Assembly: GCF_051903065.1 (NCBI RefSeq)
Contig: NZ_CP178439.1
Origin: Escherichia coli
Lineage (GTDB): Bacteria; Pseudomonadota; Gammaproteobacteria; Enterobacterales; Enterobacteriaceae
Direction: 5' to 3' (one strand)
DNA length: 64,000 bases
A program made the position numbers. Each line of letters begins with the position of its first letter. Positions within the stretch are counted from its first letter, which is position 1. Positions 21,001-63,000 of the stretch are shown here, piece after piece.

Positions 21001-24000
21001 GCTGCGCTTATGGCAGAGCAGGGAAAGGAATTGCCGGGCTATGTGCAACGGGAATTTGAAGAATTTCTCCAAAGCCCGCGACGCAGCGCCGGCAGGCAGA
21101 GCAAGTAGAGGGCAGCGCCTGCAATCCATGCCCACCCGTTCCACGTTGTTATAGAAGCCGCATAGATCGCCGTGAAGAGGAGGGGTCCGACGATCGAGGT
21201 CAGGCTGGTGAGCGCCGCCAGTGAGCCTTGCAGCTGCCCCTGACGTTCCTCATCCACCTGCCTGGACAACATTGCTTGCAGCGCCGGCATTCCGATGCCA
21301 CCCGAAGCAAGCAGGACGGCACTGTTGCAAATAGTCGGTGGTGATAAACTTATCATCCCCTTTTGCTGATGGAGCTGCACATGAACCCATTCAAAGGCCG
21401 GCATTTTCAGCGTGACATCATTCTGTGGGCCGTACGCTGGTACTGCAAATACGGCATCAGTTACCGTGAGCTGCAGGAGATGCTGGCTGAACGCGGAGTG
21501 AATGTCGATCACTCCACGATTTACCGCTGGGTTCAGCGTTATGCGCCTGAAATGGAAAAACGGCTGCGCTGGTACTGGCGTAACCCTTCCGATCTTTGCC
21601 CGTGGCACATGGATGAAACCTACGTGAAGGTCAATGGCCGCTGGGCGTATCTGTACCGGGCCGTCGACAGCCGGGGCCGCACTGTCGATTTTTATCTCTC
21701 CTCCCGTCGTAACAGCAAAGCTGCATACCGGTTTCTGGGTAAAATCCTCAACAACGTGAAGAAGTGGCAGATCCCGCGATTCATCAACACGGATAAAGCG
21801 CCCGCCTATGGTCGCGCGCTTGCTCTGCTCAAACGCGAAGGCCGGTGCCCGTCTGACGTTGAACACCGACAGATTAAGTACCGGAACAACGTGATTGAAT
21901 GCGATCATGGCAAACTGAAACGGATAATCAACGCCACGCTGGGATTTAAATCCATGAAGACGGCTTACGCCACCATCAAAGGTATTGAGGTGATGCGTGC
22001 ACTACGCAAAGGCCAGGCCTCAGCATTTTATTATGGTGATCCCCTGGGCGAAATGCGCCTGGTAAGCAGAGTTTTTGAAATGTAAGGCCTTTGAATAAGA
22101 CAAAAGGCTGCCTCATCGCTAACTTTGCAACAGTGCCTGATGAAGCCGGGTGTGCCGGTGATCCCAAGCGCTTCGCCCAGCTGCATGTTGCCGGAGATCA
22201 CGTTTTCATATCGGTTTTTTTCCCTGTCAGAAAACGTGCTGTTAAACCCTGACTTATCCACCACAGTATTAAAGTCGCTGAGTTCGAATTTGCGTTGAGA
22301 GGTCATGAAGGTATGAGCCACAGCCATCAGGTTGTTGTGGTATTTACGATAGGCTTCAGCACCGAAATTCTGATAGACGTGCAGACCCGTAGCGGCCCCC
22401 ATGGCAGATACAGGTTTTGAACCGGCAAAAATCGGGAATTCTTTAAAGAAGAATTTTACATCTTTGCTCTGATTCATTACCGATTCAACAACAGGTGTAA
22501 CCCGCATGCAGTAAATACACTGATAGTCGAAGAACTCGATTACCGCGACGTCGGCGTCATCCGGGCCGATGTTTGGCGTCTCCTTGGTATCCAGCAGAGC
22601 TGGCGCATATGGAATTATTCGTTCCACTGAGGCACTTACGTTCTGATTTTCCAGCGCCTTACCTGCTTCCACTAAATAATGGGGATTTTTTACCAGGTAA
22701 GTAGCGGCAATTTTGCCAATTTCTTCCTCACTGAGCACCTTCGGTTTAAAATAAGTTGCCGCGATTAACGCCGAGGCAGCGGTAGCAATTACCGCAGAAA
22801 TTAAAATCGTGGCCATCGGTTTTAAATAAAATTCTTTAGACATAGCTACCTTTATGCTTTTCAGCCTGTTAGTTATTAACCTGCGATGGATTATACTGGC
22901 CCGGTAAATCGGAATTATTCGTGAAACAATGCTTTTTGGAGATTAAAGGATGATTAGGCAGGGCTTTATACTCACAACCGCAATGCTTTTGAGTGGTTGT
23001 GGATATCATTTCGCAAACCAGGTAGATGCGTACGATCTAATGCCTCGTCCTGTTACAAATAAAAGGTTTCAGATAGTCCCTCCGGACGAAAGTATTCAGT
23101 CCAGAATGTTTTCAGGCCGTTTTGCTGATGGATTAGCAAAAAAAGGAGTCATTATTTCCACTCACCAGCCAGATTATGTGCTCAGGTTCCGAATGAGCAG
23201 CTCACAGGAGAACATGCAGTATAGCGAGCAGCTTCTTACTGGGGTGACAGGCTACGTTGTAGATAAAAAGACAACGAGAACTGACAAGCATGGCGAATCG
23301 CATACTGACTATGACTACAGGCCGGTCGATGGGGTAATAGGCACTGAGACGATGTCGCAGATGCACTATATGCGACAGCTGGATGTCGAGGTATACCCGT
23401 CAGCGAAAGGAGCAAAGCAGGTTCTGAAAGTGAGTATGCAAAGCAATGCACCTGTGCCGTCAGACAGCATTGCTTATTCAGCAATGATCGACGCCTTTAC
23501 TGATAAATTTGATGCGCCGCTGCGTTCCGGAAATTATGTTGCAGTGATCCCCTGGAACTGAAAGCAGACGGCGGGAAGAGAATGTTCAAAAGTGACTTTT
23601 GGACACGCACATAAACGTGGCTATCGCCCTCCCCCATTAAAATCATAAAGTCGGTAAAGATCGCCCATCGTGATGGAATTGGGCTTATTAATGATTAGAT
23701 ACTGTAACTGTTCTTTATGTTGAGTACTGGCGGCTGCATTCATAAGCACTTCCAGGTAGAACTTGTAGCCTATGCTTCGCTCTGAATACATATACTGGAA
23801 CTGCATCAGTAAAATGCCTGACATAACATACAACAGCAGCAGACTGAGTAACACAGTGCTATCAGGCTGTTCCAGTGCCATACTGACATACCCTGAACCC
23901 AGAATGCACAGAAGCCAACCCGTCATTAGAGCAGGCACCCTACGACTCAGACGTTCATAACAACGTTTTATTACGGGATCCCGGAGATACTTTTTGTCAG

Positions 24001-60000: not shown

Positions 60001-63000
60001 TGCGTGGGATCCGGCCAGTCAGAAAGGATTCCGTTATTAACAGGCAAGGTTAAAGGCAGATGGACGTTGAAATTGTGGATGCTAAAAGGGGTATTACTCT
60101 TTTTCCTGCATAGCGGCTTTTTCAGCCCGGGTGGCCAGGCGAGCATTTCCGAAAGGTTCACGGACAAGCAGGGGCTTCTCCTTCTTCCAGCCCCTGATAG
60201 CCGTTTCTCCAAAACGACGTGGTGCATTGCCGTTCCAGCGAGCAATCACATGATTATCATGAATTTCTATAATGACAACGGGGTGGACAATGACCGTTGT
60301 AATGGTGGTATTTCCCATTTTGGTACGGGTTACAGACCAAACCTGCATCCCGGATTCCAGCTGGCTGATTTTCATATTATATCCTTAAGCCAACACGAAC
60401 TGCGCCACAAAAATTAATGTGGCGCAATTTACCATAAACAATAAACATCAGATACCCGTGAAGAGATTTCCCTTTATTTTAAAATTCTTCTGGAGAAAAA
60501 ATGATATTTCCAGAAGAAGTCAGCGAAATTCAGAAACGGCCATCACAATGGTGCTGCGCTGACGCTGGCGTTCTGCCTTGCGCTGCCTGCGGCGATAGAT
60601 CTATTTTGCGCTGACGTAAGGGCAGTCCTCACGGGTATACCAGCAGCAGCCGCAAGGTTCGGGCCGGGGTTTTCCGGCAAGTCCAAATGGTTTCATCAAG
60701 TCACCTTTTTAATATTTTTAATGGCAAGATACTTCCCTAACACATTGTTTTATCGCATATAACGCTGTTGCATAAACAGATACAGATAACCCTCAGGAGA
60801 AAACATGCAAAGGTTATCAGTGATAACCGCATCCAGATACCGAGTGTCAGTCTGTAAACGTTTTATCACCAGAAAATGTGCTGCCGCAGCCTTAATGCCA
60901 GAACTACCGTTTACAACATTATGTATACCCGCTTCGAATAACGAACGAGCATGAATTACCTTTTCCCGGGCCGCTTCGATCTCCGCATTAATAACGCATT
61001 GCCGCGCCTGGATGACTGCCTCTCCGGTTAAATCGCGGAAATTCATTAGAGATGTGATCATGATTAACTCTCCAGATTATGTGGAATCATTATAACAACT
61101 GGCATCCCGCCACAAATAACCTGAGAAAAATTCTTTGAAATATTCCTATATATAAGGAATTACAGTCGGAAAAGAAACGATGAAATAGCGCCGACCGCTT
61201 AAAATCGATAAATTAAAATGGACGGCACTGGAATGAAAAACTGAAAGTAGTAAGACCGTAATTATCCTTCACGGATGTAAGCTTTATAAGAGGAGTACTG
61301 GCAAAGCTTTGCCAAGTACTTCGGCGGTTGTGTCTACGATTTTACGGATGTCATCGATCTGCGAAGGCTTATTCAACACCACCGTAAAAAGCTCTCCTTC
61401 GTTATCAGCCTGCTCGCAGTTTCCGTATCGGCTCCCGTCGTACAGCTGCACAATACGTGACATAGAAGACTTTGTTTGTTTCATGGCTTTGCACCTGCTT
61501 TTAGGCAGTTTGGTTACTGGTTATCAGAAGCTGGTTTCATGCGCTTCCGGCTGGGACACGAACTGGTATTTGACGCCGCCAGGCACACCTACTGCTTCGG
61601 CAATAGAGTCGCAAAGCCGCGATAAATCATTTAGTGTCATCGGATATTCAATATCTACAGAATATAAAGCACCTGCATTTTCAGCATCTTCGATGTTTTT
61701 ATACTGGGCACTAAATATAGCAATGGTCTGAATTTCGTGGTTATGCATGAACCGGTCCTTATTAAATTATAAAAGCCACCCGAGAGTGGCCTGAGTTGAA
61801 ACTTAAATCTGTGAAGTATTTTTGAGAGATTTTTTGCGATCCAGATGCCGGGCAACAATGGTTCCGATAACAAGTAGCATGATGACCGCACTGAAGAAGG
61901 TGCTGTCAGGGACGCCCTGGAAAAAATCACTGAAACTGTAAACAATAAAAATCAATGCGCAAAAATAGAAAACGATACGAACATAAGGGGTAAAAAACAT
62001 TTTCATCGGTTGCCTTCCATTCAGGGAGAATTCTCAGTAATTACATCACACCTGAAGAGAAACTATTTTCGTATAAATGAGCATTTTCGACATATCAGAG
62101 GGGGGGTTTACTCATAAATGAGGTAGTAAGGGTCACACTTGAGGTGAAAGTTACTTTCCTGGCTGCGAACGAACTATCTCAAATGTTAGAGGTGTGCGTT
62201 CGCCTTGAGAGCCTCATGCCCTGAGGAGCTCAACTTGAGCCGATAGTATAAACCTGGCTCCAGATGGCTTGCTGGCTGGCATAACTCCACGAGGCCGAGC
62301 CGGAACAGGACCGGAGAGCTCCTGCACGTCACATCATCAGGATTCCCCATAAACGTACGCCGTTCTCTGGCCCGTCTGAAATTGCCAGAGATATCATAGA
62401 CCGTGCCGGATGCCATCCGTCGTAACACGTAAATCTGTGCCATTGTAAGCTTCTGGGCGGAACTGCTTAAACCTGACATACCTTCCCCTCCTTATATAAA
62501 ACAATCCGCCAGCAGCTCGACTGGCGGACAATGTTTGACTGGCAACAGCAAGGACATACTATTTAGTGACAAGTTTGATCTTGGTTTCACTCATTCGAAG
62601 TCGAAACTCCTGAAAACCCTGCTCTACCGCTAACTCCAGCCACTCAACGGGAATGGTATAGCTACAATCAGACCCACCCAAAGCGGCATCACAAGCGTAA
62701 TCCCAGTCCTCATCCAGTTTTGGATTCATCCCCTGGGCGTAAGCCACAGTATCGCGGGATGCGGGAGAGCCCTCAAGCTCAGCATTAGTGATCAGGTATA
62801 CACCATGACTGTGCGCGAGAAGCACTTTTGGCACCAGATGTGTGCTGGCAATTTTTGAGGATGAGGGAAAGAAAACCCTACCAGCTTTACGCGCCTCTTC
62901 TTCAGTCTGTCCCTCAGCGTTAAGGAGGGCTCCCCCCGGATAGCATGCCGGGTCATAGATCTGATCTGCGGTGACCGAAAACGTTTTTGCGGTGCGAATT

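Follow-up and report, generated by a model that had tools for sequence, protein, structure and literature searches.

The IncHI2 backbone analysed here carries a genuine family of independent palindromic sites, which most likely constitutes a dispersed, KorB-operator-like network coordinating gene expression plasmid-wide. The invariant core of the palindrome was 11 bp (AAAGTNACTTT) and its full form 11–13 bp (AAAAGT-W-ACTTTT; oligonucleotide form AAAAGTWACTTTT).

Palindromic sites in the window

In the window, i.e., the entire 64,000-nucleotide stretch analysed, the 11-mer core occurred 14 times exactly against 0.06 expected, and none of 100 shuffled sequences reached 14. Only two one-mismatch variants were present in the whole window (4130 and 10914), both within positions 1–22000, which leaves the backbone part with 14 exact and zero one-mismatch copies. 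All 14 exact copies were located in the IncHI2 backbone (22–64 kb), with none in the resistance mosaic (1–22000). The 13-mer AAAAGTNACTTTT was found eight times exactly (0.03 expected) and 13 times when up to one mismatch was allowed (0.33 expected), and 14 of the 15 AAGTNACTT 9-mers extended to the 11-mer. The symmetrised logo was g-A-AAAGT-W-ACTTT-T-c, and no flank conservation was found beyond ±2 of the palindrome; since the flanks have no sequence in common, the copies are separate sites and not parts of a larger repeated mobile element.

A sequence-only reading had claimed at least 12 above-chance copies, absent from the resistance mosaic, and the shuffled-sequence control and flank comparison bore this out: all 12 of its sites exist, and its gene contexts were correct (upstream of trhR/Y, the relaxase operon, the ParB-like gene and the 94-aa gene, with three copies in traI/traG). 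Most of its coordinates were accurate to within 0–4 bp, but the site placed at 36543 lies at 36554–36566, the 62146 copy is perfect as an 11-mer (GAAAGTTACTTTC) but not as a 13-mer, and two exact 13-mers, at 33494 (trhH) and 36113 (trhR), had been overlooked. The longer form CGGAAAAGTTACTTTTCCG, described as frequent, fits few copies only. The corrected sites are listed in Table 1. The oriT-region iterons have AAAAGTGAC in common with the palindrome; their kinship with it is uncertain.

Table 1. Palindrome copies and related features, in window coordinates, with R27 counterparts
Feature	Position	Strand	Context	R27 counterpart
Motif copy AAAGTGACTTT	23589..23599	.	Exact 13-mer; gap between 3' ends of convergent genes; plasmid position 189362	
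Motif copy AAAGTTACTTT	24490..24500	.	Exact 13-mer; overlaps thioredoxin-fold gene stop; ~20 bp upstream of next minus-strand gene	Exact at orthologous site; flank identity 78.7%
Motif copy AAAGTAACTTT	26583..26593	.	Between convergent ends of HAD-domain gene and HNH-endonuclease gene	Matching trhG-to-HAD-gene convergent gap has two copies (117436 and 117518) and no HNH-endonuclease gene
Motif copy	33495..33505	.	Inside trhH codon 10 (N-terminal KKLLL); overlaps upstream gene's end	Exact, same place (111899)
Motif copy	36114..36124	.	Inside trhR, codon 119 (KVTF)	Exact at orthologous site; flank identity 70.7%
Motif copy	36555..36565	.	76 bp upstream of trhR start (R operon); edge of oriT-containing intergenic region	Exact at orthologous site
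Motif copy	37040..37050	.	186 bp upstream of mobI/traH (H, relaxase operon); inside longer palindrome CCCTCA-AAAGTAACTTT-AGAGGG	108336, same intergenic region
Motif copy	40463..40473	.	Inside MobH relaxase gene (traI)	No R27 alignment spans it; no exact copy in R27 mobH (103899-106934)
Motif copy	41901..41911	.	Inside coupling-protein gene (traD/traG), codon 97	Exact at orthologous site; flank identity 70.4%
Motif copy	43631..43641	.	Inside coupling-protein gene, codon 674; ~55 bp (site's last base to gene's first) before next gene	Exact at orthologous site; flank identity 70.3%
Motif copy	48533..48543	.	163 bp upstream of 94-aa minus-strand gene (48085-48369)	
Motif copy	53582..53592	.	90 bp upstream of ParB/KorB-like gene; proximal half of conserved doublet	Exact at orthologous site; doublet matched at 92113 and 92231
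Motif copy	53708..53718	.	216 bp upstream of ParB/KorB-like gene; distal half of doublet	Doublet as above
Motif copy	62147..62157	.	Exact 11-mer, outer positions G/C; 140 bp upstream of small minus-strand gene	
oriT-region iterons AAAAGTGACCCTATG / CATAGGGTCACTTTT	36802..36971	.	~6 arms, ~44-bp periodicity	
Orphan ParB/KorB-like protein, 394 aa	52307..53491	-	WP_001272970.1; best candidate binder	R0104 (orthologue)

Abundance, conservation and placement on whole plasmids

A complete IncHI2 plasmid contained 50 exact copies and 31 one-mismatch variants, and the IncHI1 plasmid R27 contained 46 exact copies. When palindromes of the form 5+N+5 were ranked, the motif led by a wide margin in both, the runners-up reaching 10 and 4 copies. 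It was also plentiful in a pNDM-MAR-type Klebsiella plasmid and a Yersinia contig, and no exact copy was found in the ~85 kb resistance/IS mosaic of the same IncHI2 plasmid. No description of the palindrome was found in the literature searched.

Among the 23 IncHI2 sites that could be aligned to R27, 22 were exact at the orthologous position within flanks that were 65–83% identical, an identity at which chance would give about 0.04 exact matches per site. Exact conservation also held for intragenic sites in the rsp, traD, trhR, Tus-like and VWA genes. The sites are thus under strong purifying selection across IncHI lineages.

Comparison of intergenic and coding density showed that 28 of the 50 sites in the IncHI2 plasmid (56%) are intergenic, versus 19.8% of its DNA (p = 2e-8). 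Many promoter-proximal sites lie 130–210 bp upstream of start codons, and the motif showed no constant position with respect to the sigma-70 hexamers that could be recognised. The proposal that the palindromes are operators in promoters holds as regards a family of independent sites but is too narrow: ~44% of the 50 copies fall inside genes or where convergent genes end, and their conservation is as strict as that of the promoter-proximal ones. In this respect they resemble KorB OB or dispersed parS loading sites rather than classical operators.

Candidate binding proteins and alternative explanations

On balance, we favour the explanation that each palindrome is a separate site recognised sequence-specifically by a dimeric protein that the plasmid encodes, and that together they form a backbone-wide network, with the KorB/ParB-fold protein encoded at 52307–53491 as the likeliest candidate binder, possibly with or alongside its paralogue R0042. 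Position and fold together make this ParB-like protein the most likely candidate. It has a Pfam HTH_ParB domain (residues 149–209) whose helix-turn-helix aligns to Caulobacter ParB, and its AF2 model (pLDDT 84) had RK2 KorB as the best PDB fold match (8qa9, E 2.5e-8), followed by ParB, Noc and Spo0J; in the fold alignments its sequence is ~17–20% identical to that of KorB. Its layout of N-domain, HTH, disordered linker and C-terminal helices is that of KorB. Perfect sites lie just upstream of the orthologous genes in the IncHI2 plasmid (two), R27 (two), the Klebsiella plasmid (six, within 870 bp) and the Yersinia contig (two), the Klebsiella homologue being only 35% identical and the Yersinia one 44%. 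These upstream sites in four lineages and the RK2 KorB fold match strengthen the tie to this gene that had been suspected from the window, whereas nothing pointed to the zinc-ribbon regulator proposed alongside it.

Several features qualify this assignment. The CTP-pocket signature is degenerate (RQG-A/H-C-R vs GERR), with the G and last R invariant and the E and first R missing, which makes a clamp mechanism uncertain. No parA adjoins the ParB-like genes, and no KorA-like or ParA partner was identified. More distant ParB-like family members in GC-rich contigs lacked the motif, and since all lineages examined had the motif unchanged, no covariation between protein and DNA could be obtained. 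The second ParB-like paralogue (R27 R0042), located outside the window, is an equally plausible candidate binder or co-binder: its promoter carries an invariant one-mismatch motif variant in three lineages, and an exact copy lies 43 bp and 130 bp upstream of it in two further IncHI-like contigs. Plasmid pSI115-1 (PLSDB, 190,597 bp) is an IncHI2 deletion derivative without the first paralogue.

Alternative explanations are given in declining order of likelihood. It is unlikely that a different factor occupies the sites (the second paralogue alone, another IncHI backbone protein or a host protein) and that the ParB-like gene simply belongs to the regulon. The motif stands upstream of very many backbone operons, so that adjacency to the ParB-like gene carries little weight, and the paralogue promoter too has the motif or a conserved variant; the existence of pSI115-1 also fits, as does the Citrobacter IncHI1B plasmid L133, which keeps five copies with only one ParB-like homologue detected. 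However, the six-copy group upstream of the Klebsiella homologue of the first paralogue is nearly matched only by a five-copy rep-gene group on the same plasmid, and the 6+1+6 geometry is the same as that of KorB operators. To our knowledge, no known enterobacterial host-factor consensus fits the palindrome, and acquired DNA carried alongside the backbone contains no copy, which speaks for a system specific to the plasmid.

We think it distinctly unlikely that the palindromes are parS sites with segregation as their main role, whether for the Par1 ParB or for the orphan ParB-like proteins with a ParA. The ParB fold of the candidate agrees with such a role, as do the small motif clusters that adjoin rep genes (IncHI2 987/1772; R27 38320/39447; Klebsiella plasmid, five at 1162–2419), and IncC plasmids provide a precedent in 14 dispersed parS palindromes, intergenic and intragenic, bound by their own ParB (PMC10954446). 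Nevertheless, the parA-parB (Par1) locus has its own 249-bp tandem repeats and no copy in or beside it in either IncHI2 or R27, copies are likewise absent from the parM promoter region of R27, and no parA lies next to the ParB-like genes. Moreover, plasmid stability was not reduced in R27 Del7, which loses R0104 and its two sites, or in Del1, which loses R0042 (PMC4853401), and parA and parB fall outside the plasmid-wide regulon (PMC7366339).

It is likewise improbable that the activator pair TrhR/TrhY or the anti-activator HtdA uses the palindrome as its DNA box, i.e., as the cis element of a plasmid-wide HtdA/TrhRY regulon comparable to the AcaCD/SetCD boxes of IncC/SXT. Mutation of htdA in R27 derepresses 139 of 181 expressed genes, spread over the backbone, the exceptions being IS genes, tet, cit, mucAB and parAB (PMC7366339), which broadly parallels the backbone-only motif distribution as mapped in IncHI2: IS, tet and cit-type acquired DNA and the parAB locus have no copy, and umuDC/mucAB has one beyond its 3' end. 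Copies are also located upstream of the AC (trhA), Z-region, H and R operons, and no TrhR/TrhY DNA target was reported in the literature searched. However, the F-operon promoter region, the standard TrhRY/HtdA reporter, has no copy at up to two mismatches in IncHI2 (window 34571–35163) and no exact copy in R27 (110222–110834), and the R operon has copies yet is not HtdA-regulated (PMC7366339). Nearly half of the copies, moreover, are conserved inside genes or between convergent genes, TrhR, TrhY and HtdA had no family match in a search of NCBIfam only, and the action described for HtdA on TrhRY takes place at the protein level (PMC7366339).

A non-binding origin (remnant of a dispersed mobile or repetitive element, target of restriction-modification or methylation, artefact of composition) is very hard to credit: IncHI plasmids have several orphan methyltransferases and GTNAC is embedded in the palindrome, but the flanks are unrelated, a strictly conserved 11–13 bp palindrome exceeds Type II targets in length, restriction-modification targets are normally avoided and not enriched 100-fold or more, the shuffles fall far short of the observed count, exact and one-mismatch copies in the IncHI2 plasmid stand at 50 to 31 where chance predicts ~1 to 30, and a hairpin made of a 5-bp stem and a 1-nt loop could not be stable.

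Relation to known site networks

The closest parallel is KorB OB of IncP-1 RK2/RP4. Both motifs are 13-bp palindromes of 6+1+6 form with a degenerate central base (TTTAGC-S-GCTAAA vs AAAAGT-W-ACTTTT), both are present at roughly one copy per 4–5 kb of backbone in promoter-proximal, promoter-distal and intragenic or remote positions, and both occur at the regulator's own promoter, the IncHI regulator being a candidate. The proteins share an N-domain, HTH, flexible linker and C-terminal domain, and the KorB crystal structure is the best match to the candidate's model. In contrast, the IncHI sites differ in sequence and are about four times more numerous (46–50 vs 12), the IncHI gene is an orphan with two paralogues and no incC/parA partner or KorA-like co-repressor identified, and the GERR CTP-binding box is degenerate (G-A/H-C-R). 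KorB is also a demonstrated repressor, whereas the IncHI protein is a candidate by position and fold.

IncC/IncA plasmids, which like IncHI plasmids are MOBH/MPF-F megaplasmids, carry a backbone-scattered palindrome in the parS sites of ParB (parAB053; core TTTCACATGTGAAA); these are mostly intergenic, with several intragenic and some adjoining transfer promoters, and are bound by a KorB-domain ParB that represses its own promoter too (PMC10954446). There, however, the binder comes from a complete parAB operon and the sites serve partition and incompatibility, whereas the IncHI candidates are orphans and the parAB locus has no copy. The two motifs are unrelated in sequence, no pairwise sequence similarity was found between IncC ParB and the IncHI candidate proteins, and AAAGTNACTTT was not found in the IncC region examined.

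VirB (Shigella pINV) and BisD (ICEclc) are likewise orphan ParB-family proteins on mobile elements that use parS-like palindromes and regulate transcription at a distance, and VirB counters H-NS silencing, a dominant theme in IncHI thermoregulation too. They have few sites versus ~50 in IncHI, and no anti-silencing evidence was obtained for the IncHI palindrome. The AcaCD/SetCD boxes (IncC, SXT/R391) are another cis element that MOBH elements repeat ahead of many of their transfer and backbone operons. AcaCD boxes, however, are activator sites without symmetry that keep a fixed place in the promoter and do not occur inside genes, whereas the IncHI palindrome has symmetric arms, varies in placement, often falls within genes and is missing from the promoter of the F operon.

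In the favoured explanation, a dimer of the ParB-like protein would recognise AAAAGT-W-ACTTTT through its ParB-type helix-turn-helix and regulate its own gene through the conserved upstream doublet. The protein may act as a CTP-dependent clamp, and it may silence, as KorB does, or counter-silence H-NS, as VirB does. Precedents are offered by the scattered IncC parS sites (PMC10954446) and by long-range silencing by KorB (PMC11790492). From the ~50 sites, at promoter-proximal, promoter-distal and intragenic positions, it would modulate transcription of the transfer, leading-region and maintenance operons, and might do so locally or by spreading or sliding along DNA.

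Abundance and distribution of the palindrome

Counting against dinucleotide-preserving shuffles of the window revealed massive over-representation of the palindrome AAAAGT-W-ACTTTT. The 13-mer AAAAGTNACTTTT occurred in 8 exact copies (0.03 expected) and in 13 copies at ≤1 mismatch (0.33 expected), and the 11-mer AAAGTNACTTT, which proved to be the invariant unit, occurred in 14 exact copies (0.06 expected), a number reached by no shuffle. The 9-mer AAGTNACTT extended to the full 11-mer in 14 of its 15 occurrences. At ≤2 mismatches the pattern was all-or-none: the backbone (22–64 kb) held 14 perfect and no one-mismatch copies, and the resistance mosaic held no perfect copy, yet both of the window's one-mismatch variants. 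The twelve sites listed by the sequence-only reading all exist, at most a few bases from the positions it gave in most cases ('36543' is actually 36554), but the list was incomplete, exact 13-mers at 33494 (trhH) and 36113 (trhR) having been overlooked. Its claims that the motif is absent from the mosaic and far more abundant than chance allows both held, the second surviving the shuffled-sequence control.

The same distribution was observed on a complete IncHI2 plasmid (NZ_CP037959.1), whose sequence was joined from six pieces before counting. It carried 50 exact copies and 31 one-mismatch variants, for which base composition predicts ~0.4 and ~10, respectively; all 50 lay in backbone segments (1–93, 128–132, and 187–276 kb), and the ~85 kb resistance/IS mosaic contained no exact copy. 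The IncHI1 archetype R27, with ~65–83% nucleotide identity to IncHI2 in alignable parts, carried 46 exact copies. When all palindromes of the form 5+N+5 were enumerated, AAAGT-N-ACTTT ranked first on both plasmids (IncHI2, 50 copies, next 10; R27, 46 copies, next 4). Further copies were found in the pNDM-MAR-type Klebsiella plasmid NZ_CP034040.1 (20 in the first 40 kb), a Citrobacter IncHI1B plasmid (5 in 25.6 kb), a Yersinia intermedia contig (7 in 21 kb), and a more distant contig (3 in 21 kb). The motif was absent from the IncC segment examined, which had the IncC parS core instead. In a double-motif pattern search of genome contigs, the matches listed were all tandem repeats from unrelated groups such as Bacteroidota and Bacillota. 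Separately, the first 40,102 bp of the Klebsiella plasmid contained a second over-represented palindrome, CCCCCG-N4-CGGGGG (15 copies in 40 kb), which is unrelated to AAAGTNACTTT.

A symmetrized logo built from 116 sites (50 + 46 + 20) read g-A-AAAGT-W-ACTTT-T-c, with background composition beyond ±2 bp; the copies are therefore independent sites rather than parts of a longer repeat, and the earlier view that they do not belong to a larger repeated mobile element was upheld by these unrelated flanks. A MITE- or REP-like element was rejected because no longer unit or flanks beyond ±2 bp were shared. A hairpin or terminator was also rejected, with a stem of 5 bp, a loop of 1 nt, and extended flanking symmetry in only a minority of copies. 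One such copy, before the relaxase operon, sits in the longer perfect palindrome CCCTCA-AAAGTAACTTT-AGAGGG (window 37034–37056), and copies at plasmid positions 52688, 60326, and 237907 also showed extended, non-homologous flanking symmetry. The R27 verification primer Del8_DOWN (ACCCGCCGGAAAAGTAACTT; PMC4853401, Supplementary Table S1) ends within the motif copy at R27 101870, and primers for IncHI plasmids can unknowingly hit a sequence repeated 46–50 times.

Conservation and placement of the sites

Conservation was evaluated at the 23 IncHI2 sites spanned by a BLASTN alignment to R27. Exact orthologous R27 sites were found for 22 of them (21 within the alignment, plus the trhH site, which is split by an alignment gap), and the sole changed site, AAAGCTACTTT, lies in htdO. 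The 150–300 aligned flanking bases were only 65–83% identical, and at ~72% identity all ten specified bases would be expected to be kept in ~4% of cases. Sites within coding sequence (two each in rsp and traD, others in trhR, the Tus-like gene, and the VWA gene) were equally conserved. As judged from these substitution patterns, the motif sites are under purifying selection across IncHI lineages.

Comparison of intergenic and coding density revealed intergenic enrichment, with 28 of the 50 sites intergenic by the deposited annotation, against 19.8% intergenic DNA in a 45-kb reference stretch (binomial p = 2e-8). Intergenic copies were often located 130–210 bp before start codons, as at trhA, the H operon, the R operon, and trhF of the Tra2 region, and likewise at parM, Ig-like protein genes, and several leading-region-type small-gene operons; overall, site-to-start-codon distances ranged from 20 to 511 bp. 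Three copies lay between convergent gene ends (window 23589, window 26583, and plasmid position 187798), and 21–22 of the 50 were intragenic. The sequence-only interpretation of the sites as promoter operators thus agrees with the many promoter-proximal copies but not with the intragenic and convergent-end ones; the convergent-end copies rule out a classical promoter-operator role for part of the set. When the surroundings of the sites were scanned for promoter consensus sequences, the spacing of sites and sigma-70-like hexamers followed no fixed register.

Copies within genes (window sites 33495, 36114, 40463, 41901, and 43631, and others plasmid-wide) favoured particular reading frames; 12 of 21 copies were read as K-V-T-F/L, and three copies at codons 5–10 of secreted or membrane proteins encoded the KKLLL of the signal peptide. 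Intragenic copies seem to occupy positions at which the encoded protein can accommodate them.

ParB/KorB-like candidate binders

The 33–54 kb part of the window was 100% identical to many IncHI2 plasmids, and the gene map of the window was taken from the annotation of the 278-kb plasmid NZ_CP037959.1. In the oriT region (36802–36971), about six copies of a 15-nt arm (AAAAGTGACCCTATG / CATAGGGTCACTTTT) occurred in both orientations at ~44-bp spacing. The first 9 bases of the arm (AAAAGTGAC) are common to arm and palindrome; the arms may serve as accessory sites of the relaxosome or represent half-sites related to the motif.

Annotated features of the window and regions containing the conserved block upstream of paralogue 2
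Feature	Location	Strand	Source or remark
R operon (trhR/trhY)	36478 to 35164	minus	NZ_CP037959.1 annotation
oriT-containing intergenic region	between R and H operons		NZ_CP037959.1 annotation
H operon (mobI, MobH relaxase, coupling protein)			NZ_CP037959.1 annotation
394-aa 'hypothetical protein' within a long run of small minus-strand genes	52307–53491	minus	NZ_CP037959.1 annotation
AAAAGTACCTTTTT block region, L006	43633–44001		pHI2 about 273713
AAAAGTACCTTTTT block region, L007	44832–45190		
AAAAGTACCTTTTT block region, L133	4498–4836		Citrobacter IncHI1B plasmid

The 394-aa product (hereafter paralogue 1; WP_001272970.1, R27 orthologue R0104) contains a ParB-type HTH (Pfam HTH_ParB, residues 149–209, E 1.5e-5) that aligns to the Caulobacter ParB HTH. 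An AlphaFold2 model from a 96-sequence family alignment was confident (pLDDT 84); its best PDB match was RK2 KorB (8qa9, E 2.5e-8, TM about 0.65 on target), followed by ParB, Noc, and Spo0J, so that the modelled protein has a KorB/ParB fold. Paralogue 1 and KorB have a common domain order, namely an N-domain, the HTH, a disordered linker (acidic and proline-rich in paralogue 1), and C-terminal helices. The equivalent of box II (GERRxRA), which in a CTP-binding N-terminal domain permits clamp closure and sliding, reads RQG(A/H)CRxR(A/S) in paralogue 1, with the Glu and first Arg of GERR missing; Gly99 and Arg102 were invariant across the 96 family members.

Perfect sites lay just upstream of the paralogue 1 gene in all four lineages examined. 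The two copies that had been read in this gene's own promoter were confirmed in IncHI2, 90 and 216 bp before the gene, and two were likewise present in R27; the Klebsiella plasmid has six within 870 bp upstream of a homologue only 35% identical, and the Yersinia contig has two upstream of a homologue 44% identical. A second ParB-like protein (paralogue 2; R27 R0042, WP_000114859.1), encoded outside the window and adjoining a Dam methylase, is ~29% identical to paralogue 1. Its promoter carries a one-mismatch motif variant, AAAAGTACCTTTT, in three lineages; the 14-nt block AAAAGTACCTTTTT, ~80 bp before the gene, is this kind of variant and is invariant in three IncHI lineages, in promoter DNA that is otherwise only partly conserved. 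In two IncHI-like metagenomic contigs, an exact copy was found 43 and 130 bp upstream of paralogue 2.

Since the motif or its variant occurs in both promoters, one or both paralogues are natural candidate binders, between which the data do not decide. In a protein–DNA covariation comparison, the motif was identical in every IncHI-like lineage found. Distant ParB-like relatives in GC-rich contigs had a similar recognition helix (xxHxR) and the motif was not found there, so the helix does not discriminate between the two paralogues. That some other factor binds the sites is unlikely in our judgement. The literature searched contained no report of a ParB-like protein binding this palindrome directly.

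Pairwise sequence similarity between the IncC ParB and the IncHI ParBs was not found. Among IncC proteins, the one closest to the IncHI ParB-like proteins was a separate orphan 'ParB' (pB557-NDM, L132 5944–6882) rather than the partition ParB; it is the "parB-like regulator" of the IncC literature, and its gene lies upstream of one for a site-specific DNA methyltransferase, with three small genes (~1 kb) in between. A similar arrangement of ParB-like and methyltransferase genes recurred on contig L137.

Interpretation and significance of the proposed site network

RK2 KorB binds twelve 13-bp palindromes (6+1+6) in promoter-proximal, distal, or remote positions. The IncHI sites exist, are massively over-represented, are confined to the backbone, are enriched between genes, and cluster at the candidate gene. 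Four features of a KorB–OB-like class were found: a repeated palindrome, backbone confinement with selection, mixed positions, and a same-replicon ParB/KorB-fold protein with sites in its own promoter. The motif set is probably, on balance, a KorB–OB-like network of predicted binding sites for the orphan paralogue or paralogues. Such a binder would autoregulate its own gene and, throughout the backbone, influence operons for transfer and maintenance as well as those of the leading region; we infer a binder that may slide or spread, and that may act in silencing or in anti-silencing.

A role of the sites as partition centromeres (parS) is quite unlikely. Neither IncHI2 nor R27 has a copy at or close to its Par1 parAB locus, the orphan ParB-like genes lack a neighbouring parA, and the R27 parM promoter has no copy. 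The R27 deletions Del1 (which includes R0042) and Del7 (R0104 and its two sites) were not destabilized (PMC4853401), which argues against an essential partition role, paralogue redundancy being possible. Outside the window, two 249-bp tandem-repeat arrays (~9.8 and 3.5 copies; IncHI2 plasmid, L002 12124–15594) fill an unannotated gap upstream of Par1 parA and may be the Par1 centromere or incompatibility region.

That the motif is a box for the transfer activators TrhRY or the anti-activator HtdA is similarly improbable, if consistent with the copies at the TrhRY-dependent operons H, AC, and Z. The F-operon promoter region, the standard TrhRY/HtdA reporter, has no copy at ≤2 mismatches in IncHI2 and none exact in R27, and for this reason a TrhRY box was rejected as the main reading. 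In addition, distances to start codons follow no common register, and the 21 intragenic copies, conserved where alignable to R27, are unexpected for an activator box. The absence of any protein-binding function is hardly credible. A Tus/Ter relationship, with a partial resemblance of the motif to GTTGTAAC, was set aside, fifty symmetric fork barriers being implausible.

A KorB–OB-like network is of a kind already known. RK2 KorB is a CTP-dependent clamp that silences at a distance (PMC11790492). IncC plasmids have 14 scattered parS palindromes (core TTTCACATGTGAAA), both intergenic and intragenic, which are bound by the IncC KorB-domain ParB, some beside AcaCD promoters (PMC10954446). The IncHI case differs in concerning a third large plasmid family, in having many more sites, and in its orphan paralogous candidate binders. 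The motif is not mentioned in the searched literature on IncHI, R27, R478, or ParB-like/KorB proteins; nor do its 46–50 copies, its association with orphan KorB-fold paralogues, or its conservation among pNDM-MAR-type, IncHI1, and IncHI2 plasmids appear to be described there.

Of 181 expressed R27 genes, 139 are derepressed when htdA is mutated; IS genes, tet, cit, mucAB, and parAB are among those unaffected, and the study names no DNA target or motif (PMC7366339). Acquired DNA, the category to which the IS, tet, and cit segments belong, carries no motif copy in the IncHI2 plasmid; the parAB locus has no motif, and one copy lies past the 3' end of umuDC/mucAB. Nearly all of the IncHI backbone is co-regulated, and the literature searched describes neither a shared cis element nor a DNA target for this co-regulation. 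It is possible, though doubtful, that one or two orphan ParB paralogues, KorB-like and perhaps gated by CTP, load at the ~50 invariant palindromes and spread or slide over the whole backbone, supplying the missing cis/trans layer of coordination for the plasmid-wide, temperature- and HtdA/TrhRY/H-NS-dependent expression programme (transfer included) of IncHI1–IncHI3 resistance megaplasmids. If true, no larger ParB-type network of regulatory sites would be known from a plasmid.

IncHI plasmids rank among the main carriers of multidrug resistance (IncHI1 in typhoid; IncHI2 with mcr-1, mcr-9, and ESBL genes), their conjugation is thermosensitive, and pNDM-MAR-type plasmids have spread in Klebsiella. 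The conserved palindrome and its KorB-fold candidate binder provide a concrete, cheaply testable handle on an unexplained plasmid-wide regulon, might also be targeted to disrupt plasmid transfer or gene expression, and would extend the principle of dispersed ParB-type sites known from KorB and IncC ParB to a further large plasmid family.
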